A program made the translations under genes and the position numbers. Positions 3,003 to 63,950 of a DNA stretch of 64,000 nt are shown one piece after another. Within the stretch, counting starts at the first letter, position 1. Every line of letters begins with the position of its first letter. Source of the stretch: Chlorobiota bacterium (GTDB taxonomy: Bacteria > Bacteroidota > Ignavibacteria > Kapaibacteriales > NICIL-2); the NCBI GenBank assembly GCA_044224515.1, contig JBGAKH010000002.1, positions 355,817-419,816 of the forward strand, read 5' to 3'. The notes under the pieces are model-generated. The model did not search any database, had not been told where the DNA came from, and saw only the letters and a program-made list of their open reading frames with translations.

Positions 3003-3390
3003 AAGAAGGGATGCGAGCGCCGCATGACCACCTTTGTTCCGGCCCCGTCGGCAGAGCCTTTTTGAGCATTTTGGCAGGATATCACAACGACAGCAGACAT
3101 TCTCCCGACCGGTGGTGTGGCCCGCTATGCATGGTGTACCGGAGTTTTGGACAGTGCCGGGTCTATGACGACATCGACTAGAGTCCGTATCGGTTTATAG
3201 TGTGCAACTTCAAACTCCGGTAGAGAGTCGGCCAACTTTGCAACACTAGCATTACGACAAACGACTCCTTTGCCCCACCTTGAAATAGACTCATGTCTGC
3301 ATCGCGACTGAAGACAAGGTGCTCAGACAGCGGAAAAATGTCTATTTTCGTTACGCAGCATCACTATCGCACCACGCGTATCATAGCGGC

Positions 3391-5577
3391 ATGGTTCGAC
3401 GTCTCAAACCCTTTCCTTTTATTAAACAACGTGACATGACAGAGTGTGGAACCACCTGTCTGGCCATGGTGTTTAAGTATTACGGACTTACCAATATTCA
3501 AGCGGCTCTGCGAGAGATCGCCGGTGTCAGCGCGCGCGGTTCTGATCTCTACACATTGTCACTGGTGGCCGAGCGCTTTGGCTTTCAAACGGAGGGGGCC
3601 CGGATCAAGTTTGATCATCTACAGAAGATCCCGCTGCCTTGTATCGCCCATTATGAGGGTAACCACTTTGTTGTTGTCTACAAAGCAACCGCGCACGATG
3701 TCTGGATTGCAGATCCGGCTTCAGACAAAGAACGACTGAGTAAAGAAGAGTTTCAAAGCAAGTGGAATGGAGTTGTCCTTGCATTGGATCCCGGAAAAGA
3801 AGTCTTTGCCTCGAAGGATGTTGTGGAAATCGCTGAACAGTATTCTCGGCGACAAAAGTTCGTCACTCGCGCCTTCTATTCCTCGCTGCTCTTTCCATTC
3901 CGAGCGGTTCTGCGCGACGTAGTCATCGCCTCTTTTGTCATGACCTTGTTGGCTTTGGCTCTGCCATTCTTGACACGCGTCGTTGTAGACAACGTACTGG
4001 TCTTCCAAAATCAAAACCTGCTTTACGCCATACTGCTGGCTATGCTGCTGGTTTTTGTGCTGCAGGTTGTGTTGACCTATGTGCGACATCTCCTATTCGC
4101 TCAAATGCGAATCGAGTTTGAGTTTGAGTTCTTCAGTCGCTTCTTTCGACACTTCACACAACTCACACAAGCCTACTTTGATTCTCACAAAAGGGAAGAC
4201 TTCGTTCAGCGCTTTCAAGAGAATCTCAAGATCCGCAACCTCTTCAGTGCCGGAACTCTGCAGTCTGCCCTTGATGTTGTTCTCCTTTTCATACTGATAC
4301 CGGTTCTTTTTAGCTTTCATACATCTCTAGCACTGTGTGCCACAGCTTTCCTCTTTGCGTTTATTGTGGCGACCGTGATTTTTACACCACGCATTCGTCG
4401 CCTGCAAGAAAAAGTCTTTCATGAAAACGCTAAGACAATGGGGTCGTTTCTCGACTCTTTGATTGGTATGCCGACTATTAAACTCCTCTCGGCAGAAACG
4501 CTGAAGTATTGGGAATGGCGGCACGTTTATAAACGCGCCCTCAACAAAGTCTTAAGCGCCTCTCAAAGCCAGATCATGCTCAATTCGGTTCTGCGCACGA
4601 TCATCTTTAGCGGACAAGTCAGCATGTACTGGTATGGAGCTTATCTGAGCTTTCATGGCGAGCTGAGTATCGGCCAATACATTGCGTTCATCAGCATATT
4701 CAGTATGATGATGAATGCGGCAAGCACAGTCAGCGACTTATGGTTTGTGATTACCGACCTTAGTGTGACCTTTGCCCGTTTGAACGACGTGTTTATGCAG
4801 GAGCCGGAGAACGCAGATCTGGCAACGCAGCTCACCGAACTCCATGGGTCGGATATTGAGATCTCCTCGCTCACATTCTCCTACGACGAGAGCGACCATG
4901 TGGCACTTCGTAACATTCAGCTACGTATCGCCGCAGGTGAGCATATCGGTGTGGTCGGACGCAACGGTAGCGGTAAAACGACTCTTGCGAAGTTACTGGT
5001 TCGACTCTATGATAACTATCAAGGTTCTATCAGCATTGGTGGAACAGAGTTGCATAATCTGCATCCGCAGTACCTGCGACAAAAAGTCGCAATGATTCCG
5101 CAAGACGTGCATCTCTTTAATGGAACCATTCGCGACAACATCGCAATGGCGCGTCCCGATGCTACTATGGATGAGATTATTGAGGCTGCACGAAAAGCAG
5201 AGCTGCATGATTTTGTCAGCAGCATGTACCTAGGCTATAATCAGAAGATCGGTGAAAGCGGATCGGGTCTCAGTGGTGGTCAACGTTTGCGCATCGCCTT
5301 TGCTCGATTGTTCTTGACGAATCCGGATATTATTATTCTCGACGAAGCAAGTTCGGCGCTGGATGTCATTGCCGAACAGAAGATCATGCAGCGGGTACAC
5401 GAACATTTTAAGAGCGCCACCATTATCTCAATCGCACATCGATTGAGCACCTTGCAAAAAGCTGATCGTATCGTTGTTCTCGACGCTGGTCAACTCGTTG
5501 AACTTGGTACACACGAAGAACTCGTGCAGAAACAAGGTACCTACTTCCGTTTTGTAAAAACCTATGTCGACTTCTAA
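3391..5577 (+). CDS. ABC transporter with N-terminal C39 (double-glycine) peptidase domain; bacteriocin/peptide-exporter type, ATP-binding plus permease
   Basis: C39 catalytic Cys context QRDMTECGTTCLAMVFKYYG with a downstream His (IAHYEGNHFVVV). Six-TM core. Walker A GRNGSGKTT, ABC signature LSGGQRLRIAFAR, Walker B IIILDEASSALD. Start at ATG 3391 (MVRRLKPFPF...) preferred over the GTG at 3319. Confidence 0.8.
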   Translation: MVRRLKPFPFIKQRDMTECGTTCLAMVFKYYGLTNIQAALREIAGVSARGSDLYTLSLVAERFGFQTEGARIKFDHLQKIPLPCIAHYEGNHFVVVYKATAHDVWIADPASDKERLSKEEFQSKWNGVVLALDPGKEVFASKDVVEIAEQYSRRQKFVTRAFYSSLLFPFRAVLRDVVIASFVMTLLALALPFLTRVVVDNVLVFQNQNLLYAILLAMLLVFVLQVVLTYVRHLLFAQMRIEFEFEFFSRFFRHFTQLTQAYFDSHKREDFVQRFQENLKIRNLFSAGTLQSALDVVLLFILIPVLFSFHTSLALCATAFLFAFIVATVIFTPRIRRLQEKVFHENAKTMGSFLDSLIGMPTIKLLSAETLKYWEWRHVYKRALNKVLSASQSQIMLNSVLRTIIFSGQVSMYWYGAYLSFHGELSIGQYIAFISIFSMMMNAASTVSDLWFVITDLSVTFARLNDVFMQEPENADLATQLTELHGSDIEISSLTFSYDESDHVALRNIQLRIAAGEHIGVVGRNGSGKTTLAKLLVRLYDNYQGSISIGGTELHNLHPQYLRQKVAMIPQDVHLFNGTIRDNIAMARPDATMDEIIEAARKAELHDFVSSMYLGYNQKIGESGSGLSGGQRLRIAFARLFLTNPDIIILDEASSALDVIAEQKIMQRVHEHFKSATIISIAHRLSTLQKADRIVVLDAGQLVELGTHEELVQKQGTYFRFVKTYVDF

Positions 5578-7806: not shown

Positions 7807-8073
7807 CTATATTGCTGGTGCATCGGCTGGGTCCTACTCGTACCTAGAACTCATCCTCGAGTATATGCAGAATGATTGCCCGCTTGTTCGATGAGCAGCA
7901 CAGGTGTAGCACCGTAGGGCTTATTGAATAGCTCATGAGCTCTTGGAAGCTTGCAAACTGGTCCATTTGTTGCATACTCTGCGTATGTACGCTATGTTAG
8001 TGTGCGTGCCGGCAAGTGCACTTCAACGGAATGAGCAGGCCGAACAACAAGTATCACCCAGGAAATCAGCCAC

Positions 8074-17668: not shown

Positions 17669-19330
17669 ATGAACAATAAAAACGAACTCGTTGAAATCCT
17701 CGAAGAAATGGCCGTATTGATGGAATTGGGCGACATGAACGCCTTTAAAACCAAAGCCATTCAAAACGGCGCTCGCGTGCTTGACAAAGCGTCCATCAGC
17801 TTGGAAGACGCTGCGGCAGATGCCACCCGGGCCACCCAGGCGGGACTCGGTAAAGGCATCCAGGAAATACTCCGCGAGTTTGTGAGTACAGGTGCTGTGG
17901 CGGAACACCAACGTTTGAAAACCCTCATTCCGGAAGGGGTGTTTTCATTGACCAAGCTCCGTGGTGTTGGAGCAAAGAAAGCAAAGGCTTTGCATGAGCA
18001 CTTAGGCATCAATAGTATTGGTGAACTTGAGCAAGCCTGTCGCGAAAACCGCTTACTTGAGCTCAAGAGCTTTGGCGCCAAAACGCAAGCCGCTGTCTTA
18101 GTCGCCATTGAAACGTGGAATTCAGCCCAAGGACGTCTACTCCTTCATCGCGCCACCGCGATGGCCGAGGAGCTGCGTCAAGAGTGTTTGCACCATGGCG
18201 CCGTTCGAGTTGAGCGGAGTGGAGAATTAGCTCGCTGGTGCGAAGTCATCAACGAAATCTGTTTGGTATGTCAGTCATCGGATTCGGCAACACTCTGTGC
18301 GCACTTTGGCGTAGCGGCAGATACACAAGAGATCAATGTCCTTCGCGACGGAATGCGTGTGCGAATCATCGTGTGTGGCGAGGATACCTTTGAGCGAGAG
18401 CTATTCAGATCGAGCTGTGCAGCAGACTTCCTGCGCGCATTCGAGCAAGAGTTCAGTGTTCCCGGCGGACTCGACCGTGCGGGCATATTTGCGCACAACA
18501 AATTGAGCGTCGTATCGCCTGAGTTATGCGAAGATCCTTCGATTCTGCAGCGTGCAGCCGAACACGATCTGCCGGAACTCGTCGAAAACCGTCACATGAA
18601 GGGAATGCTCCACATCCACACACACTGGAGCGATGGCGTCCATTCCTTACGAGAAATGGCACTGGAGGCTAAAGACTTGGGCTTCGAGTACATTGCGGTA
18701 TGCGACCATTCAAAGACAGCTTTTTATGCAAACGGACTCAGCGTTGACCGCGTCTTGATGCAGCATGAAGAGATTGACAAGCTTAATGCGGAGAACCTCG
18801 GTATTCGCATTCTCAAAGGTATCGAAAGTGATATCCTGAGCGATGGATCCTTGGATTATGAAGAAGACATCCTGCAGCGTTTTGATATGGTTGTGGCCTC
18901 AGTGCACTCAGCCTTCAGCCTGGCGAAAGAGGTTCAGACCCAGCGCATTATCAATGCCATTCGAAGTCCGTACACGACGATTGTTGGACATCCTACCGGT
19001 CGACTTCTGCTTTCACGTAAGGGTTATGAGTTGAACATCGAGGCGATACTCGAGGCTGCTGCCGATACCGGAACCGTAATCGAACTCAATGCCAACCCGC
19101 ATCGTTTGGACCTGGATTGGCGCTTTCATCAGCGAGCGGTGGACTTAGGAGTAAAGATTGCCATCAATCCGGACTCTCATCAATGTGCAGCACTGAAGGA
19201 AGTGTTTATCGGCGTTGGTGTCGCCCGCAAGGGCATGTTGCGTCCAAGCGACGTCCTCAATACGCTGTCCCTCAGTGAATTTCAGAACTTCTGCGCGGAT
19301 CTGCGCGTCCGCAAATCCTCTATGAACTAA
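17669..19330 (+). CDS. polX: Bacterial family X DNA polymerase (PolX) with C-terminal PHP phosphoesterase domain
   Basis: N-terminal HhH/Pol-beta-like region (GVGAKKAKALHEHLGINSIGEL). The C-terminal PHP domain has His/Asp clusters (HIHTHWSDG, CDHS, HSAFS, GHPTGR, NPDSHQ). Confidence 0.8.
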   Translation: MNNKNELVEILEEMAVLMELGDMNAFKTKAIQNGARVLDKASISLEDAAADATRATQAGLGKGIQEILREFVSTGAVAEHQRLKTLIPEGVFSLTKLRGVGAKKAKALHEHLGINSIGELEQACRENRLLELKSFGAKTQAAVLVAIETWNSAQGRLLLHRATAMAEELRQECLHHGAVRVERSGELARWCEVINEICLVCQSSDSATLCAHFGVAADTQEINVLRDGMRVRIIVCGEDTFERELFRSSCAADFLRAFEQEFSVPGGLDRAGIFAHNKLSVVSPELCEDPSILQRAAEHDLPELVENRHMKGMLHIHTHWSDGVHSLREMALEAKDLGFEYIAVCDHSKTAFYANGLSVDRVLMQHEEIDKLNAENLGIRILKGIESDILSDGSLDYEEDILQRFDMVVASVHSAFSLAKEVQTQRIINAIRSPYTTIVGHPTGRLLLSRKGYELNIEAILEAAADTGTVIELNANPHRLDLDWRFHQRAVDLGVKIAINPDSHQCAALKEVFIGVGVARKGMLRPSDVLNTLSLSEFQNFCADLRVRKSSMN

Positions 19331-19470
19331 TGGTGCCGGCTGAACGTCGCAGCTAGCGGACACCGCGTCGGTTGTATTTTTGCTGCTTGTCTTCGCTGCT
19401 AAGTCGCGAAGAGGGGAGCCGAACCACTCCTGCGCTAAACCGTTCGAACATCACCTGTAGGTCTCTATTT

Positions 19471-20682
19471 ATGACGCTGAAACACGTTCGCGAGCAGCGA
19501 CTCTTCGTTGTTGCTCTCTTATTGATTCTCATCGATCAAGTCACCAAAGTGTGGATCAAAGGATTTCACATTTTGGGTTTGGTGCATGAAGGCATGCCAC
19601 TGGAAAGCAGCAGACAGATCTTCGGCGAGTTGCTTCGCTTTAGCTACGTGGAAAACCCCGGGATGGCTTTCGGCGTGTCGTTCGGAAGCGCAAAAATCTT
19701 CCTTAGTCTCTTCTCAATCATAGCCGCCGGAGGTTTGGCGTGGTACCTCCACAAGCTGCGTCACTCGACGATATGGGTGCAACTGGGTGTGATGCTTCTG
19801 CTAGCCGGGGCGGTGGGAAATTTGATTGACCGCGTTTTCTATGGATTGATCTACAACGAAGCACCGTTGTTTTACGGCAAGGTTGTGGATTTTATCGATG
19901 TGGATTGTCCTGATTTTAGTCTCTTCGGACACAGCTATACCCGTTGGTGGGTCTTCAATGTTGCGGATGCCTGCGTGAGCTGTGGTATAACGCTCCTTGT
20001 CTTGTTCAATCACAAGATTCCAACGCTCAAGAGTCTTGACAGTCGCTTCCATGTGTCGAACGATGAAATACACATTGAGGAGTACAATCCCCAATGGGCA
20101 CATGAATTCGCAGAACTTAAGACGGTGCTGGAACGTAGCCTGGGCGGCAAAGCGCAAAGCATAGAGCATGTCGGTAGCACTTCGATTCCCGGTTTGGCTG
20201 CCAAGGCAGTAATGGATGTCGACATCGTCATCGCTGAACAGAGCTCGTTGGATGAGATTCGTACCACCCTTGAAGCATTGGGTTATGTGTATGAGGGCGA
20301 TAAAGGTATTCCCGGACGTGAAGCATTCCGTCAGAGCGACTCCATGGTTCCGCATGGTAGCGGTCACCGATGGATGCGTCAACATATGTACGTCTGTGCC
20401 TCCGACTCTCTAGCCCTGGCTGAACACCGACAGTTCCGTGAGGCGCTTCTGAACTCAAGCGAGCTTCAAGCACAATACGTGGCACTCAAACGTGAATTGG
20501 CAGAGAAGTTCCGATTGGATCGCGAAGCCTATACTAACGGAAAGGCCGACTGGATTCGCTCAGTTCTGTCCGCCGCCACTACCACAACTCCCAGTGTGGA
20601 AAACAGCCCGGAAGAAGCGTCCGACACGGCTGCAACCGACCAAAGTGACGAGTCGGAGAGCGAAGATTTTAAATCAGTGTAA
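19471..20682 (+). CDS. lspA: Fusion protein: lipoprotein signal peptidase II (LspA) fused to a GrpB-family (nucleotidyltransferase-fold) domain with acidic tail
   Basis: N-terminal half: LspA motifs ENPGMAFG, VVDFIDVD, FNVADACVS within four TM helices. C-terminal half: GrpB signature SIEHVGSTSIPGLAAKAVMDVDIV...RQFREAL...YTNGKADWI. The reading frame is continuous, 403 aa from ATG 19471. Confidence 0.7.
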   Translation: MTLKHVREQRLFVVALLLILIDQVTKVWIKGFHILGLVHEGMPLESSRQIFGELLRFSYVENPGMAFGVSFGSAKIFLSLFSIIAAGGLAWYLHKLRHSTIWVQLGVMLLLAGAVGNLIDRVFYGLIYNEAPLFYGKVVDFIDVDCPDFSLFGHSYTRWWVFNVADACVSCGITLLVLFNHKIPTLKSLDSRFHVSNDEIHIEEYNPQWAHEFAELKTVLERSLGGKAQSIEHVGSTSIPGLAAKAVMDVDIVIAEQSSLDEIRTTLEALGYVYEGDKGIPGREAFRQSDSMVPHGSGHRWMRQHMYVCASDSLALAEHRQFREALLNSSELQAQYVALKRELAEKFRLDREAYTNGKADWIRSVLSAATTTTPSVENSPEEASDTAATDQSDESESEDFKSV

Positions 20683-57442: not shown

Positions 57443-57517
57443 GGGCGCTTAGCTCAGCTGGTTCAGAGCATCTGCCTTACAAGCAGAGGGTCGGGAGTTC
57501 AAATCTCTCAGCGCCCA
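57443..57517 (+). tRNA. tRNA-Val (anticodon TAC)
   Basis: Manual cloverleaf fold. Acceptor GGGCGCT/AGCGCCC, D-arm GCTC-AGCTGGTTCA-GAGC, anticodon stem TCTGC/GCAGA with loop CTTACAA, variable loop GGGTC, T-arm GGGAG-TTCAAAT-CTCTC, discriminator A. No encoded CCA. Confidence 0.9.
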
Positions 57518-57525
57518 CATCCAAA

Positions 57526-57557
57526 AAGCCGTTTTTCGAAAGAAGAGCGGCTTTTTT
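57526..57557 (+). terminator. Rho-independent terminator after the tRNA
   Basis: AAGCCG ... CGGCTT stem, followed by TTTTTT. Confidence 0.6.
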
Positions 57558-57888
57558 CGTATGTGGTTGATAGAATATGGCTTCCAAAAAAGCAGCAGCT
57601 AAGTGGCGCGGACGAAAGGCTAAAATTTAAAGACGAAGCCGGGAGACGCGATGCCATGGAACAGACAGGCGCTGAAGCAATATTGATGTATCCAACGAAA
57701 CCACGTAGAAGAGCTCTTTAGTCATGGCAAGAGTGATTCAGACTGATTACTCGACATCACACAATAATTAAGCATCTTTGAACTCCGGCGCATGACGAAC
57801 TGCCTCAACGATCCTCTACGAGTCGAAGAGAATCGTAGTGCGGCGCAACTCTGCAGGATTATTCTTCCCACTATCCGGGGACACATCG

Positions 57889-58572
57889 ATGCAAACATTG
57901 CCCTCCTACATTACATTTGTTTTTTCGCTCACAACTGTAGCTACTCTTTGGTTTTTTAGCGCGGCTACGGCATACAAGAAATGGACATTTATCGTCGTTG
58001 CAGTGTGGTTAGTTTTTCAGGCCATAGTTGGGATGTCGGGATTCTACACAATTACGCATACTTTCCCTCCACGCTTTTTAGCTCTTGTACTGCCACCGGC
58101 GCTCTGCATCATAGCACTCTTCAGCACGAGCAAAGGCAGAGCGTACCTCGACAGCATGGACCTCAAAGCACTGAGTCTCGTTCACACAGTGCGCATACCG
58201 GTCGAAATCGTCCTCTACTGGCTCTACCAACAAAAAATGGTACCACAGCTCATGACCTTTGAAGGAAGCAACTACGACATTCTTTCGGGTATGACAGCGC
58301 TCGCTGTGTATTTCATGTTGTTCAATGGTTCACCACTAAAAATCAGACTCCTTGTGGTGTGGAACGTTATCTGTCTCGGACTACTCTTGAACATTGTCGG
58401 CAAAGCGGTGTTGTCCGCTCCCTTTCCCTTCCAACAGCTTGCCTTTGAGCAACCTAACATCGCCGTTCTGTACTTCCCTTTTAACTGGCTCCCATCGTGC
58501 GTAGTACCCCTTGTACTACTCTCACACCTTGCGTCACTACGCCAACTTTTCAGAAAGCTACGAGAGAAGTGA
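57889..58572 (+). CDS. Hypothetical polytopic membrane protein (about 7 TM)
   Basis: Hydrophobic segments throughout (FVFSLTTVATLWFFSAA, FIVVAVWLVFQAIVGMSGF, LALVLPPALCIIALF, and others). No recognisable motif. Confidence 0.45.
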   Translation: MQTLPSYITFVFSLTTVATLWFFSAATAYKKWTFIVVAVWLVFQAIVGMSGFYTITHTFPPRFLALVLPPALCIIALFSTSKGRAYLDSMDLKALSLVHTVRIPVEIVLYWLYQQKMVPQLMTFEGSNYDILSGMTALAVYFMLFNGSPLKIRLLVVWNVICLGLLLNIVGKAVLSAPFPFQQLAFEQPNIAVLYFPFNWLPSCVVPLVLLSHLASLRQLFRKLREK

Positions 58573-58574
58573 GA

Positions 58575-59140
58575 CGAACGCCGGCTTCGCTGGCTTCGAC
58601 TTCGCTGGCTTCGGCTTCGCTCAGCCAGCGAGGAGTTAGAGTGGGATCTGCTTTACCGGCTGGCTTCGGCAAAGCAGATCACTGCCTGAGCGAAGCCGAA
58701 GCCAGTGTTGGCAAAGCAGATCACTGCCTGAGCGAAGCCGAAGCCAGCCGGCAAAGCAGATCGCTGGCTGAGCGAAGCCGAAGCCAGCCGGCAAAGCAGA
58801 TCGCTGGCTGAGCGCAGCCGAAGCCAGTCGGCAAAGCAGATCACTGCCTGAGCGCAGCCGAAGCCAGTCGGCAAAGCAGATCACTGCCTGAGCGCAGCCG
58901 AAGCCAGTGTTGGCAAAGCAGATCGCTGGCTGAGCGAAGCCGAAGCCAGTGTTGGCAAAGCAGATCGCTGGCTGAGCGCAGCCGAATCCAGCGTTGGCAA
59001 AGCAAATCACTGCCTGAGCGCAGCCGAATCCAGTGTTGGCAAAGCAGATCACTGCCTGAGCGAAGCCGAAGCCAGTGTTGGCAAAGCAGATCGCTGGCTG
59101 AGCGCAGCCGAAGCCAGCGTCGGCAAAGCAGATCGTTCAG
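58575..59140. repeat. Tandem array of 11 full units plus one partial 40-42 bp direct repeat, preceded by an inverted partial copy. Each unit can fold into a hairpin.
   Basis: Units start at 58668, 58710, 58750, 58790, 58830, 58870, 58912, 58954, 58996, 59038, 59080 and 59122 (partial). Consensus: GGCAAAGCAGATC[ACTGCC/GCTGGC]TGAGCG[A/C]AGCCGAA[G/T]CCAG[TGTT/CC/TC/CGTT]. 58580..58667 carries reverse-complement copies (CTTCGCTGGCTTCG x2; GCTCAGCCAGCGA). There are no unique spacers, and the 40-nt units break every reading frame. Confidence 0.85.
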
Positions 59141-59142
59141 CT

Positions 59143-60672
59143 TTACGGTCTCACATGCACTAGTGGAATGTCACTCGAAAACGTAGGAGACTGAATTGAC
59201 ACGACATACACACCGAACGGAAGTCCTGACAAGTCCACCATGAGATCATACCAATTCAGACCAAGAGAGCTTTGCCTGAACTGCACCTGATCTGAACCGA
59301 TTACCAGAGCCCTAGTTCCCACGATGTCATAGACTTCAACTCTTATGGAACTCAAATCAATTGTGTTTGCGATGAACGTTGTCACAGACACAGTAGTTGA
59401 TGACGGATTAGGAACCACCTTGCGCGGTTCGATAAGAGCGCTCTCCAGGCGATTGTGAACCGGAAGATCATCGCCGACCGGAACCATAGAGTCTGGCTTC
59501 ATTGTTAGGATTGCCGGCGTCGATCTGTAGGACCATGCACAAATCATTCCTTCACGAGAGTTCTTTATCAGTGACGTTGTAACATAGACGTAGGTAGAAT
59601 CGCGGTTGCCATCCTTGAAAAACGCTGGTTTTGAAACAATATAATTCCACGTCTTGCCTGAGTCAGCGGTTATTATGACTTGTCCTCGATAGAACTGAGC
59701 TATCAATTGGCCATCTTCAGTCAGGCTATTCTGGTAGATTTCTCCGTAGTCATCACCATAGGGTAAGACTGCAGCAGTTATCCACGAACGTCCACCGTCA
59801 GTTGTTCGATATATGACATTGTGAGAAGGATCGCTTGTATCGTTGTTCTTGCGAAAACCATGGGCAACTCCAATCGATGAATTGAAGAAGTAAGCGCCAT
59901 TGAACCGATCGTTGTGACTTGTATCAGAGTACACCCCGTCGATCGTAAAGCCTATTCGTGTCCAACTCTTTCCTTTGTCGGTTGTCAAGTAATTAGACGT
60001 TCCCCAGTCCAATGAAAATGGATAGTACTTTTGAACGAGGAAAGAGTTCGAATCAACAACCCACGCACGATATATGAAGTCTAGATCTTTAGGCGAGTTA
60101 GGAATCGTATCATGAACGTGTACCTGACGGAATGTCCTCCCGCCATCGAAAGTAGCCCACGTGATAAAAAGGTGATCTATGCTTGTTATACCTACTAAAG
60201 GTGCCACAGCCGAACTGAACAACACTCTATTGGCAGAGGGTAGCAGAGCTGTATCAAGTTTGTGCCACGTTACAGAGCCATCGTCAGAATAATAAAACCG
60301 CGTACGAACACCTCCCCAGAAATAGTGCAACGAGTCAAGCCTGCATGCACCATTGGTTACGACAGGATCAAATACCGGAACCAGCATCCTCCAATGCCTT
60401 CCGGTATCGTGACTACTAAAAATTTTTGGCTCAGATATTCCAGGTGGAAACGGTCCGTCGGATTTGCGTGTGTATTCAACTATCCCAAAGCCAATTATGG
60501 AGTCTGCGCTATAAACCATTTTCTGAAAGTTCACACCCGAGACCTTCCAATCCTTTGGAACCTGCTCCAGTTGAACAGGAAGCACCTGAGACCATACTGA
60601 TTCTTCGGCCAATGCTATGGAATTTGAGGCAAAAAGGCTAAGACAAGCCAGAGTGATCAACAAGTGCTTCAT
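59143..60672 (-). CDS. BNR/Asp-box repeat (sialidase/Ycf48-like beta-propeller) protein with T9SS C-terminal sorting domain
   Basis: Signal peptide MKHLLITLACLSLFASNSIALA. Asp-box repeats SxDxGxTW: SHDTGRHW, SDDGSVTW, TTDKGKSW, TTDGGRSW, SADSGKTW. The C-terminal ~90 aa are beta-rich and CTD-like (...FGVYVVSIQSPTF...). Confidence 0.65.
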   Translation of the reverse strand: MKHLLITLACLSLFASNSIALAEESVWSQVLPVQLEQVPKDWKVSGVNFQKMVYSADSIIGFGIVEYTRKSDGPFPPGISEPKIFSSHDTGRHWRMLVPVFDPVVTNGACRLDSLHYFWGGVRTRFYYSDDGSVTWHKLDTALLPSANRVLFSSAVAPLVGITSIDHLFITWATFDGGRTFRQVHVHDTIPNSPKDLDFIYRAWVVDSNSFLVQKYYPFSLDWGTSNYLTTDKGKSWTRIGFTIDGVYSDTSHNDRFNGAYFFNSSIGVAHGFRKNNDTSDPSHNVIYRTTDGGRSWITAAVLPYGDDYGEIYQNSLTEDGQLIAQFYRGQVIITADSGKTWNYIVSKPAFFKDGNRDSTYVYVTTSLIKNSREGMICAWSYRSTPAILTMKPDSMVPVGDDLPVHNRLESALIEPRKVVPNPSSTTVSVTTFIANTIDLSSIRVEVYDIVGTRALVIGSDQVQFRQSSLGLNWYDLMVDLSGLPFGVYVVSIQSPTFSSDIPLVHVRP

Positions 60673-60711
60673 GTTTTTGTGGTTTTGAGTGAATAGTTTA
60701 TAGTAAGCAGC

Positions 60712-61377
60712 TTACGGGCATTCTACAGGTCCGCATGGTATAGGAACATAAGTAAAGCCATTCCACCATTGGTAATTCCCCGTGCAAGAAACAGGACCAT
60801 TCGTTGCATAAGACGAATACTCATATCGGGGAGGATCCGGAACTGGACAGGTAGTCGATGGACAACACCACTTATAGTATCGTATGCAATTCACATCAGG
60901 ACCACATGAATAACTAGCGTAGACCTCCTCTTGACTTCCATTTGGAAGCGTTTGAAGTTGCTGTGTGTCGAAAAGTGCAGTAGCACACGCTACACTCGAC
61001 ATACTTGGGAGCAGATATCCAGTATAGGGATCCGGAATCGGACAGTTTGGTACAGACCAATTGAGTCCTCCAGACGCGAGATTGATTCGATCAATGCAAA
61101 TATTGAAAAACGTGCCTTCCATCAAGTCAAGAATAGCGCTCCGAGTGAGTCCTGGGCAGTTTGTCCAATAGTTTACTAGCGTTACAGATGGAGCATAGGA
61201 TCCACCTCCGGAGACCGTGCCGAGGCACAGTTCACAAATCACATAGCAACCTGGGTTCAGAGGTACAGGTAACCAGCCTGTTGTATAGGTAATTGATCCA
61301 GGTGGGCAAGCAGAGCGAACGCTGGTCGGCACCAACATCGCAAAAAACAGAAGGAAAACGAGCAGTGTAGCTCTCAT
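60712..61377 (-). CDS. Secreted cysteine-rich (about 20 Cys) Pro/Gly-rich hypothetical protein
   Basis: Signal peptide MRATLLVFLLFFAMLVPTSVRSA. Repeated CP.. motifs (CPPGS, NCPGL, NCPIPDP, CCPSTTCPVPDP, CGPVECP). Confidence 0.45.
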   Translation of the reverse strand: MRATLLVFLLFFAMLVPTSVRSACPPGSITYTTGWLPVPLNPGCYVICELCLGTVSGGGSYAPSVTLVNYWTNCPGLTRSAILDLMEGTFFNICIDRINLASGGLNWSVPNCPIPDPYTGYLLPSMSSVACATALFDTQQLQTLPNGSQEEVYASYSCGPDVNCIRYYKWCCPSTTCPVPDPPRYEYSSYATNGPVSCTGNYQWWNGFTYVPIPCGPVECP

Positions 61378-61468
61378 ACGTACTCCAATACTATGATGAA
61401 AAAATAGTATCGGGGGCTAGTTTGAATGATCCAACGTTTATACATTAACTATGAAGGTCTGGCATTCA

Positions 61469-61780
61469 TTACCACTGACAACAACTCATCTCACTGAAAT
61501 TCCGGTAGTACTGCATTATCACATCGACGCGACAGCGGGCTATCTTGCTTGCCACGTCGAGCGGAACCCGCGCCTCACAAAGCCTTGAAATGAAGGTCTT
61601 CCTGAACTCATGAAACGCTCTGTTCTTCTTTGGTATGCCTAAAACGAACATTGCTGCATCCAGCCGCTTGCGAAGCATTCTATAGGTCTCTCGCCGGCCG
61701 TCATAACTGAACATCTTACCGCTTTTCAATGCCGGCATGATGATCGCATCAGGATTCATACGCCTCTCATAGAAACTCAC
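61469..61780 (-). pseudogene. Truncated tyrosine recombinase (phage-type integrase): catalytic C-terminal fragment only
   Basis: Contains the HxxR (HEFRKTF) box, a second-Arg region (ARCRVDV) and the catalytic Tyr context IMQYY. It lacks the N-terminal core-binding domain and box I Arg. The upstream side is AT-rich with no ORF. Confidence 0.6.
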
Positions 61781-62870: not shown

Positions 62871-63287
62871 ATGAGAGTACTTTTCATTTGCATTCATAAC
62901 TCTGCTCGCAGTCAGATGGCTGAGGCGTTTGTTCGGGCTGAATCGGATGGTGCTATTGAGGTGGAGTCGGCGGGCTTGGAGGCCGGACGTTTGAATCCTT
63001 TGGTAGTGAAGGCAATGGCCGAGCTGGGTATCGATATCTCGCACCATCAGTGTACCACAGTTGATGAGATCTTGAAAAAGGGGGTTGTGTATACTCATGT
63101 GATTACGGTTTGCGATGAAAGCAGCGCTGAGCGCTGTCCGATGTTCCCCGGTACGAGTACACGTTTGCACTGGAGTTTCGCCGACCCATCGACGCTTGAG
63201 GGAAGTGATGAGGAAAAACTGGCGGCTATTCGTCCAATTCGTGACGATATTCGCCAACAAGTACGTGCATTTCTAGCCACATTGTGA
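62871..63287 (+). CDS. arsC: Arsenate reductase, LMW-PTPase family (thioredoxin-coupled)
   Basis: CX5R P-loop in VLFICIHNSARSQMAEAF, plus the downstream Cys pair (CDESSAERCP) used by the thioredoxin-coupled ArsC mechanism. Confidence 0.8.
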   Translation: MRVLFICIHNSARSQMAEAFVRAESDGAIEVESAGLEAGRLNPLVVKAMAELGIDISHHQCTTVDEILKKGVVYTHVITVCDESSAERCPMFPGTSTRLHWSFADPSTLEGSDEEKLAAIRPIRDDIRQQVRAFLATL

Positions 63288-63290
63288 TCC

Positions 63291-63950
63291 ATGAGTGAAC
63301 AGGGCAAAAAATTGATCGCCGAGTGCGTGGCAACCTTCTTTTTGGTCTTCTTTGGAACGGCTGCTATTGTTGTGGATCAGACCTATCATGGCGTCGTTGG
63401 ACACATAGGTGTATCCATCGTTTTCGGGTTGATCGTCACCATTATGATCTACAGCTTCGGAAGTGTTTCCGGAGCTCATATGAACCCTGCTGTCTCCATA
63501 GCCCTTTTTGTTATCAAACGCATTGAGCTCAAAACATGCCTCTCCTACATAGCCATGCAGGTTCTAGGTGCATTGATAGCTTCGCTTGCTATTAAGTCCA
63601 TGTTTCCCGCCAATGCCACTCTTGGTGCAACGCTTCCTTTAGGGGGCTATTGGCAAAGTGCTGTGCTGGAGTTTGTGATGAGCTTCCTGCTCATGCTCGT
63701 TATTCTGCGCGTTGCTGTGCGCACCCACACTTCAGTGCAGTTAGTCGGTGCGATAGTTGGCTCGGTTGTCTTGCTTGAAGCGCTGATGGGTGGACCTATC
63801 TCCGGAGCCTCTATGAATCCTGCACGAAGTTTGGGACCTGCTGTGCTTGCAGCAAATATTCAAGGACTCGAAATCTATCTGCTCGCTCCTACCCTCGGAA
63901 TGATTTTCGCAGCGAAGCTAGAGGAACTTCTGTTCGGACACCACGCTTGA
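63291..63950 (+). CDS. MIP-family channel (aquaglyceroporin, AqpS/GlpF-like) immediately downstream of arsC
   Basis: Two NPA boxes (HMNPAVSIALF and SMNPARSLGPA). Six TM. 4 bp from the arsC stop. Confidence 0.85.
   Translation: MSEQGKKLIAECVATFFLVFFGTAAIVVDQTYHGVVGHIGVSIVFGLIVTIMIYSFGSVSGAHMNPAVSIALFVIKRIELKTCLSYIAMQVLGALIASLAIKSMFPANATLGATLPLGGYWQSAVLEFVMSFLLMLVILRVAVRTHTSVQLVGAIVGSVVLLEALMGGPISGASMNPARSLGPAVLAANIQGLEIYLLAPTLGMIFAAKLEELLFGHHA

Follow-up and report, generated by a model that had tools for sequence, protein, structure and literature searches.

The 64,000-nucleotide stretch analyzed here, hereafter the window, comes from a Chlorobiota bacterium (assembly GCA_044224515.1, contig JBGAKH010000002.1, positions 355,817 to 419,816). 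Near its right end, two convergent genes are separated by a gap of 570 bp, of which 555 bp are occupied by a tract of tandem repeats. The gene on the left (57889-58572, plus strand) encodes a hydrophobic, multi-segment protein of 227 amino acids for which there is no Pfam or NCBIfam model but which belongs to a large, conserved Bacteroidota family (3555 matches, about 60% identity). The gene on the right (59143-60672, minus strand) encodes a 509-amino-acid BNR/Sortilin-type protein with the C-terminal sorting domain of the type IX secretion system, as identified by Pfam and NCBIfam searches. The stop codons of these genes (58570-58572 on the plus strand and 59143-59145 on the minus strand) lie only 7-8 nt from the two ends of the tract, with 7 nt on the side of the 227-amino-acid protein gene. 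The tract itself consists of a long array of direct repeats (58668-59134) and a shorter left part of some 90 bp (58580-58667) that is an inverted, interrupted copy of the repeat unit.

The direct array is the one outstanding array in the window (Tandem Repeats Finder, TRF: period 42, 11.3 copies, 92% matches, score 689), with a GC content of 61% versus 49% for the window. When cut at the invariant GGCAAAGCA, it resolves into eleven complete direct units (58668-59121, plus strand) with the consensus GGCAAAGCAGATCACTGCCTGAGCGCAGCCGAAGCCAGTGTT and lengths of 42, 40, 40, 40, 40, 42, 42, 42, 42, 42 and 42 bp, that is, seven 42-bp and four 40-bp units, followed by a 13-nt stub of a truncated twelfth unit (GGCAAAGCAGATC; 59122-59134, plus strand) that ends 8 nt short of the stop codon of the BNR protein gene. 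The alignment of the eleven units contains 33 invariant columns, with a mean identity of 92%; the 13-nt GGCAAAGCAGATC block and the arms of the internal dyad are nearly invariant. A degenerate 25-nt pattern derived from the unit (at most 3 mismatches) has 11 matches, all within the array; 100 shuffles yielded none, and neither did the rest of the 64 kb. The units abut head to tail, and all 42 columns belong to the repeat. [quoted passage not shown] The tetranucleotide GATC is present once per unit but is unremarkable in the window (observed/expected 0.84) and was dropped as a potential signal; the Bacteroidota-type promoter motif TAnnTTTG was not found in the unit on inspection by eye.

The left part of the tract is made of two inverted pieces. 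The outer one (58604-58631, minus strand) is complementary in 28 of 28 positions to the core of unit 3 (58761-58788), which is a G..G variant with a CC linker, and was recovered both by the inverted-repeat search and as a minus-strand nhmmer match (58603-58657); the second (58645-58670) is complementary to the junction of units 2 and 3 in 25 of 26 positions (96%). Between the two arms lies a unique 13-nt insert, GGAGTTAGAGTGG (58632-58644). The outer end of the inverted arm (58580-58603, minus strand) consists of degenerate 15-bp sub-repeats (CTTCGCTGGCTTCGA) that derive from the GAAGCC/AGCCAGCG motifs of the unit (TRF: 58585-58621, period 15, 2.5 copies). Where the inverted and direct parts meet head to head (58645-58680), the inverted-repeat search identified 14-nt arms, with 13 of the 14 positions paired, around an 8-nt loop. 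No target-site duplication is associated with the tract, the flanks of which, GACGAAC and GTTCAGC, are not direct repeats. Immediately outside the tract, at 58569-58579 and 59135-59155, there are inverted repeats (GTGAGAC-GAAC on the left; GTTC, 9 nt, and GTCTCAC on the right) that overlap both stop codons and may be a relic of a short ancestral terminator stem or a chance occurrence.

The variation among the units is confined to column 10, columns 14 and 18, which are fully linked, columns 26, 34 and 39, and a linker of 2-4 nt. For nearly every pair of variable sites, all four allele combinations are present (the four-gamete condition), which implies recombination or gene conversion among the units. 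When the register is shifted by 25 nt, two pairs of adjacent units become identical, and adjacent units are marginally more similar to each other than permuted ones (P about 0.05-0.07). The linked alleles of columns 14 and 18 (A..C and G..G) follow the strict order AAGGAAGGAAG(G), with a period of four units (post hoc P about 0.0065). This period is not shared by the other variable sites, so that no simple duplication history accounts for the order. Thus, in its anatomy, the array conforms to the first-pass annotation made from the sequence alone, which described spacer-less tandem units of 40-42 bp filling a convergent gap, an inverted partial copy at 58580-58667, and units that are mosaics of a few variants.

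The same annotation held that the array does not encode a repetitive protein, and the searches agree with this assessment. No protein family matches the array, and no ORF is called over it in any collection on record; when the peptides from all six frames were compared with 5.8 billion protein clusters, there was no match to any called ORF. The 42-bp units keep the reading frame but the four 40-bp units shift it.

Each unit is an imperfect palindrome in which columns 13-20 can pair with columns 33-40 around a 12-nt loop. This helix is paired in 85% of the cells of the alignment, compared to 17-44% when the partners are slid. Nevertheless, the proposal that the units are hairpins maintained by structural selection, with arms pairing also between neighboring units, did not withstand closer analysis. 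The folds of single units are no more stable than those of dinucleotide shuffles (z of -0.90, -0.63, +0.44 and -0.10), and the minimum-energy folds differ between unit variants. The stem is often defective, with a C.C mismatch at pair 18-35 in 6 of the 11 units and C.U at pair 19-34 in two, and with pair 13-40 lost in the four 40-bp units, so that three of the four variable stem pairs (13-40, 18-35 and 19-34) vary by disruption only. The sole covarying pair is 14-39 (A-U in four cases, G-C in three, G-U in two and one mismatch). The covariation is not significant either for the helix within a unit, the score of which is reached by 124 of 500 shuffles, or for the helix between adjacent units, where 437 of 500 shuffles do as well. 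The fold of the complete tract is far more stable than expected (z of -7.0 and -9.8), and this is because the inverted copy pairs with direct units. Only one element of the tract is strongly structured, and the head-to-head junction forms its core: the segment 58600-58700 reaches -58.3 kcal/mol (z -7.5) when folded as the minus strand and -64.5 kcal/mol (z -4.3) as the plus strand, and its 46-nt core (58640-58685) reaches -22.2 kcal/mol (z -4.0). This strong hairpin has no T-run, and no intrinsic terminator, that is, a hairpin followed by a T-run, was found anywhere in the convergent gap, where the candidates are limited to weak stems of 5 bp followed by tails like GATCTGCTTT; the tract itself was rejected as an intrinsic terminator because no U-tract follows the GC-rich hairpin. 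An Rfam search at a permissive E-value recovered tRNA-Val only, and no family reaches its gathering score in the array; the weak matches to isrG (27.9 bits versus a gathering score of 100) and mir-6131 are far below the gathering scores and were dismissed as spurious.

The unit appears to be unique in the collections searched. Its core has no match in 185,579 species genomes or in viral contigs, and a blastn search with the tract against plasmids and phages was equally negative. Not even a single unit is present in the other 63.4 kb of the window, and a profile built from the eleven units and run with nhmmer over 1.6 Mb of fetched DNA recovered no full units apart from those of the window and of its two short-read counterparts. 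A REP-like (repetitive extragenic palindromic) family with hundreds of copies, which had been raised as a concern, was therefore not found within the 64-kb window or the public collections. Three candidate relatives were considered, none of which was accepted. The only match in metagenomes (L082) is a single, non-tandem 22-nt segment at the end of an unrelated Lys/Glu-rich ORF and was judged to be a chance hit, about 0.5 such matches being expected. An array in a second locus (L086) has the same 42-bp period, with 6.7 copies, but is only about 50% identical to the unit and was not accepted as homologous. This minisatellite (L086, 5273-5552, also present in L087), which lies near a gene of the phage tail tape-measure type, has been called as a 248-amino-acid 'protein' (P0147), showing that such arrays get annotated as ORFs. 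Finally, a metagenomic contig (L088, 565-840) carries a 20-bp tandem repeat, CGACTTCGCTCAGCCAACGA, the reverse complement of which matches unit positions 12-31 in 18 of 20 nt (29 of 33 with flanks; 24 bits) in a neighborhood that looks proteobacterial (LysR, cytochrome b561 and YceI). Given the different period, higher-order organization and context, selection of this match by similarity, and the low information content of the motif (GAAGCC hexamers), it was not accepted as a homolog; the likeness could reflect convergence or distant relatedness and is a weak lead. In ~1.5 Mb of loci from other Bacteroidota, there are about five arrays with a period of at least 20 bp and at least 4 copies, the maximum being 5.5 copies. 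The array described here is unusually long, yet it is the same kind of object as these other Bacteroidota minisatellites.

The array itself is probably genuine, although its exact copy number rests on one assembly. An independent assembly of short reads (run SRR28480385) contains two contigs that are identical to the window, one (L083) to positions 57466-58715 and the other (L001) to 59088-61203, and each ends ~47 nt inside the direct array, as is typical of de Bruijn assemblers when they reach a repeat. The longest exact repeat within the array is 61 bp, and every 62-mer is unique, so that reads of 100-150 nt can resolve it. With both edges matched exactly by short-read contigs and all 62-mers unique, an artefact is unlikely.

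The genomic context of the array is mostly that of a chromosome with housekeeping genes. Upstream there is a complete arginine operon (argG, argC, N-acetylornithine carbamoyltransferase, argB, an M20 deacetylase and argH), and a tRNA-Val(TAC) gene (57443-57518, plus strand; detected with ARAGORN and Rfam), 1.05 kb upstream of the array, is followed by a canonical terminator with a stem and a T-run (57524-57560). Past the BNR protein gene come a Cys-rich ORF of 221 amino acids, an integrase fragment, arsC and an aquaglyceroporin (MIP) gene; the remainder of the window encodes housekeeping and other proteins (enolase, ClpB-like, FabF, PepF, PolX, an ECF sigma factor and others). This lineage has been sampled only sparsely, as indicated by the identity of its ArgH, which is no higher than 52-58% to any of the 185,579 species representatives, the best matches all being from Bacteroidota. 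The nearest relative (GCA_039810585.1, hereafter L084) shows 77% identity in argG and 62% in argH; its BNR protein (P0122), 46% identical, is the only real relative of the BNR protein of the window. The order of the arginine operon, tRNA-Val, the BNR protein gene, arsC and MIP is the same in L084, but there the BNR stop is separated from the canonical terminator of tRNA-Val by about 180 bp, within a gap of 215 bp that contains no tandem repeat. The terminator after tRNA-Val occupies the same relative position in the window and in L084 (11705-11747), and in the lineage of the window about 1.6 kb, comprising the gene for the 227-amino-acid protein and the array, are interposed between this terminator and the BNR protein gene. 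In L084, the terminator directly faces the 3' end of the BNR protein gene and could serve both this gene and tRNA-Val. L084 has minisatellites of its own, unrelated to the array, at 18272-18380 (23 bp, 4.7 copies, between the argB-like AA_kinase and carbamoyltransferase genes) and at 8000-8071 (26 bp, 2.8 copies, by MIP).

These comparisons clarify the suggestion that the array is part of a putative genomic island in a tRNA-proximal region with a decayed integrase. The tRNA and the integrase remnant are indeed present, the latter as a 103-amino-acid ORF located 2.3 kb beyond the array with a weak match to the Pfam phage-integrase family (E=0.0028, below the curated cut-off). The gene for the 227-amino-acid protein with the array, and the 221-amino-acid ORF with the integrase fragment, both missing from L084, appear to be the only lineage-specific insertions. 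The rest of the presumed island does not hold: the BNR protein gene and the arsC-MIP pair are syntenic with the arginine operon in L084 and hence are ancestral rather than island cargo, the 227-amino-acid protein belongs to a family conserved across Bacteroidota, and a search for an att-like direct repeat (at least 14 nt) of the 3' end of the tRNA was negative. The 221-amino-acid ORF (with a hydrophobic, signal-peptide-like N-terminus and no family match) and the adjoining integrase-like ORF (together 60712-61780) may represent a decayed insertion separate from the array. Further downstream (62871-63950), a thioredoxin-type arsC lies directly upstream of the aquaglyceroporin gene, a pair that is kept in L084 and looks like a small arsenic-resistance module.

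Taken together, these observations make it fairly likely that the array is a non-coding, lineage-private minisatellite, that is, a tandem repeat of the variable-number (VNTR) type, which arose through slippage and gene conversion and would most likely act as an incidental barrier and stabilizer. The 3' spacer of the two convergent genes could have held, as the starting point, an imperfect GC-rich palindrome some 40 bp long, which would have been duplicated once in inverted orientation and then amplified head to tail via replication slippage or unequal recombination; short-tract gene conversion would subsequently have mixed the five or six variant sites among the units. The array probably has no dedicated sequence-specific function. 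There is no canonical terminator in the gap, in contrast to L084 and to the adjacent tRNA gene, and transcription of both genes must therefore proceed into the tract. As in the REP/BIME (bacterial interspersed mosaic element) clusters of Escherichia coli, the hairpins would plausibly impede read-through and protect 3' ends, and the tract, particularly the head-to-head hairpin of ~100 nt on the left, could serve as an incidental barrier and 3'-end stabilizer between the two genes. REP/BIME clusters act as terminators, which are partly Rho-dependent, and as mRNA stabilizers and, when located between convergent genes, are linked to higher expression of both (bioRxiv 10.64898/2026.03.23.713779). 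Among the characterized minisatellites, the MIRU-type (mycobacterial interspersed repetitive unit) VNTR loci of Mycobacterium tuberculosis (PMC3635867) resemble the array in being direct, spacer-less, intergenic and non-coding repeats with a unit of tens of base pairs and mosaic variants. In contrast to MIRUs, which occupy many loci per genome and are defined by copy-number variation between strains, the array is seen at one locus in one genome, has an imperfect palindrome as its unit, and is capped at one end by an inverted copy.

Several features of the locus weigh against the minisatellite interpretation. The period-4 order of the column 14/18 alleles is not obviously predicted by simple slippage of single units; the eleven copies exceed every array of the 1.5-Mb comparison set, where the maximum is 5.5; the close approach of the tract to both stop codons could hint at a function; and the hairpins of the units and the junction lack U-tracts, which leaves the proposed role as a barrier or stabilizer conjectural. 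Moreover, the array is known from one genome, copy-number polymorphism being the hallmark of a VNTR, and low-copy dispersal in the remainder of the source genome is compatible with the copy searches, which covered the 64-kb window and the public collections.

Such dispersal is the essence of a different explanation, in which the tract is a mobile or dispersed repeat present in few copies in the same genome, either REP/REPIN-like or a BrickBuilt-type MITE (miniature inverted-repeat transposable element), with an internal minisatellite, inserted in the terminator region. An imperfect palindrome downstream of convergent ORFs is indeed in the location preferred by REPs (PMC3733652), the inverted unit at one end provides the tract with inverted-repeat termini, and for the source genome the search for copies was confined to the window. 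In Proteobacteria, REP and BIME elements are 20-40-bp palindromic units that form clusters downstream of genes in convergent or tandem orientation (PMC3733652; bioRxiv 10.64898/2026.03.23.713779), and in that respect are similar to the array. However, REPs are dispersed in high copy number, tagged with GTAG/CGTC, associated with RAYT (REP-associated tyrosine transposase) genes, and alternate in orientation within BIMEs, none of which applies here as far as the window and the public collections show: the tract contains neither GTAG nor CTAC and only a single CGTC (at 59118), no RAYT or transposase is encoded among the scanned ORFs, and the units are direct, with one inverted copy only, at the left end. 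The nearest Bacteroidota precedent is BrickBuilt of Porphyromonas gingivalis (PMC4596501), which, like the array, is spacer-less, always intergenic, restricted to a species and bounded by inverted-repeat ends, but its unit is 23 nt long, it includes distinct subunits for leader and tail, and each genome holds 19 copies, compared with a unit of 40-42 nt, no leader or tail, no target-site duplication and one known locus here. If a genome of a few Mb contained several hundred copies, several of them should be present in the other 63.4 kb of the window, where none is found, and no spurious ORF derived from another such array was detected in the collection that contains the source assembly. An origin as a dispersed element thus appears unlikely. 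The array could also be a platform for protein loading, such as a sopC-like centromere, a set of iterons or other phased binding sites, with the dyad of the unit as the operator. In sopC of plasmid F (PMC3177203), there are 12 direct 43-bp repeats, each with an inverted repeat bound by SopB, an architecture to which the array comes close; in addition, a period of 42 bp corresponds to four helical turns, and the near-invariance of the GGCAAAGCAGATC block and the dyad arms would fit a binding site. However, sopC is located on a plasmid next to sopAB and contains a contiguous 16-bp inverted repeat, whereas the array lies on a chromosome, beside the arginine operon and amid housekeeping genes, the four 40-bp units break the helical phasing, the dyad is interrupted, with 12 nt between its 8-nt arms, and has the C.C mismatch in more than half of the units, and the array is absent in the syntenic L084. 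No ParA/ParB, Rep or other DNA-binding partner is encoded among the scanned ORFs of the 64 kb, and the centromere and iteron assignments were rejected on this ground. A loading array of this kind is quite improbable. The same estimate applies to the broader version in which the array is a functional, recently evolved platform, either a chromosomal sopC-like array with the binding protein encoded elsewhere or a transcribed array cut into RNAs of about 40 nt; if a loading platform nonetheless were the correct interpretation, a functional dimer-of-dimers arrangement would lie behind the strict AAGGAAGGAAGG order in which the two unit types occur.

An array of structured RNA modules, transcribed as a 3' untranslated region or a stand-alone RNA and possibly processed into units, would be in keeping with the preferential pairing of the intra-unit helix, with the three kinds of base pair at 14-39 and with the low z of the whole-tract fold. 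That z, however, is due to the inverted copy, with the single units close to zero; covariation is not significant, the variable pairs change mostly by breaking, variant units fold differently, no Rfam family comes close to its gathering score, and there is no homologous array on which conservation could be checked, so that such an RNA is very unlikely. A still more doubtful candidate is a decayed remnant of a minus-strand gene for a protein with a 14-residue repeat (GFGCAQAVICFANT). The 42-bp units are in frame, a minus-strand ORF of 138 amino acids (58636-59052) is present, and an exhaustive phmmer search with this ORF retrieves long proteins with the 14-residue repeat GFGQAQAxIKAxxx, with E-values down to 6e-30 and 38-43% identity, in addition to a few spurious ORFs called over other minisatellites, those of L086 and L088 among them. 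The matched proteins are large and of the Laminin_G_3 type, without a recognized repeat family, and share about 7 of 14 positions per unit; the E-values are likely inflated by the comparison of repeat with repeat, and the collection presumably holds very many families of 14-residue repeats. The frame is shifted by the 40-bp units, the ORF starts inside the array, every unit variant is non-synonymous in the minus-strand frame, the tract starts 8 nt past the BNR stop with no gene called over it, and neither the vicinity of the locus nor L084 contains a gene for such a protein. Least probable of all is an assembly error through which the repeat was expanded or misjoined: misassembly is common in tandem repeats, and the short-read assembly does break inside the array, but the independent contigs reproduce both edges exactly, and the non-redundant mosaic of variants with unique 62-mers is unlike the products of collapse or stutter.

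As a minisatellite, the array is a clean case of a large, private repeat that stands between convergent genes in the place of a canonical terminator; in this lineage, ArgH is only ~62% identical to that of the closest relative with a sequenced genome. As it stands, it matters little. In practice, it is a possible VNTR marker for strain typing and a warning that short-read assemblies will break at this locus. If its role as a barrier and stabilizer is real, the locus would represent a case in Bacteroidota in which a repeat amplified de novo assumes the 3'-untranslated-region role of the enterobacterial REP/BIME elements.

Three other regions of the window are worth a brief mention. The segment 24000-32739, with a lower GC content (0.44-0.45 at 24-28 kb), encodes an FkbM-type methyltransferase, two Laminin_G_3 proteins and a 1623-amino-acid Kelch/PKD/CHU_C Ig-like protein, and may be a horizontally acquired cluster of surface proteins. 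At 19372-20682, a single ORF of 436 amino acids combines signal peptidase II (LspA) and GrpB domains, which would be an unusual fusion unless the ORF has been called too long. Finally, an ABC exporter with a C39 peptidase domain, of the bacteriocin/peptide-export type, is encoded at 3319-5577, with an OmpA-family gene and an unannotated ORF of 473 amino acids upstream.

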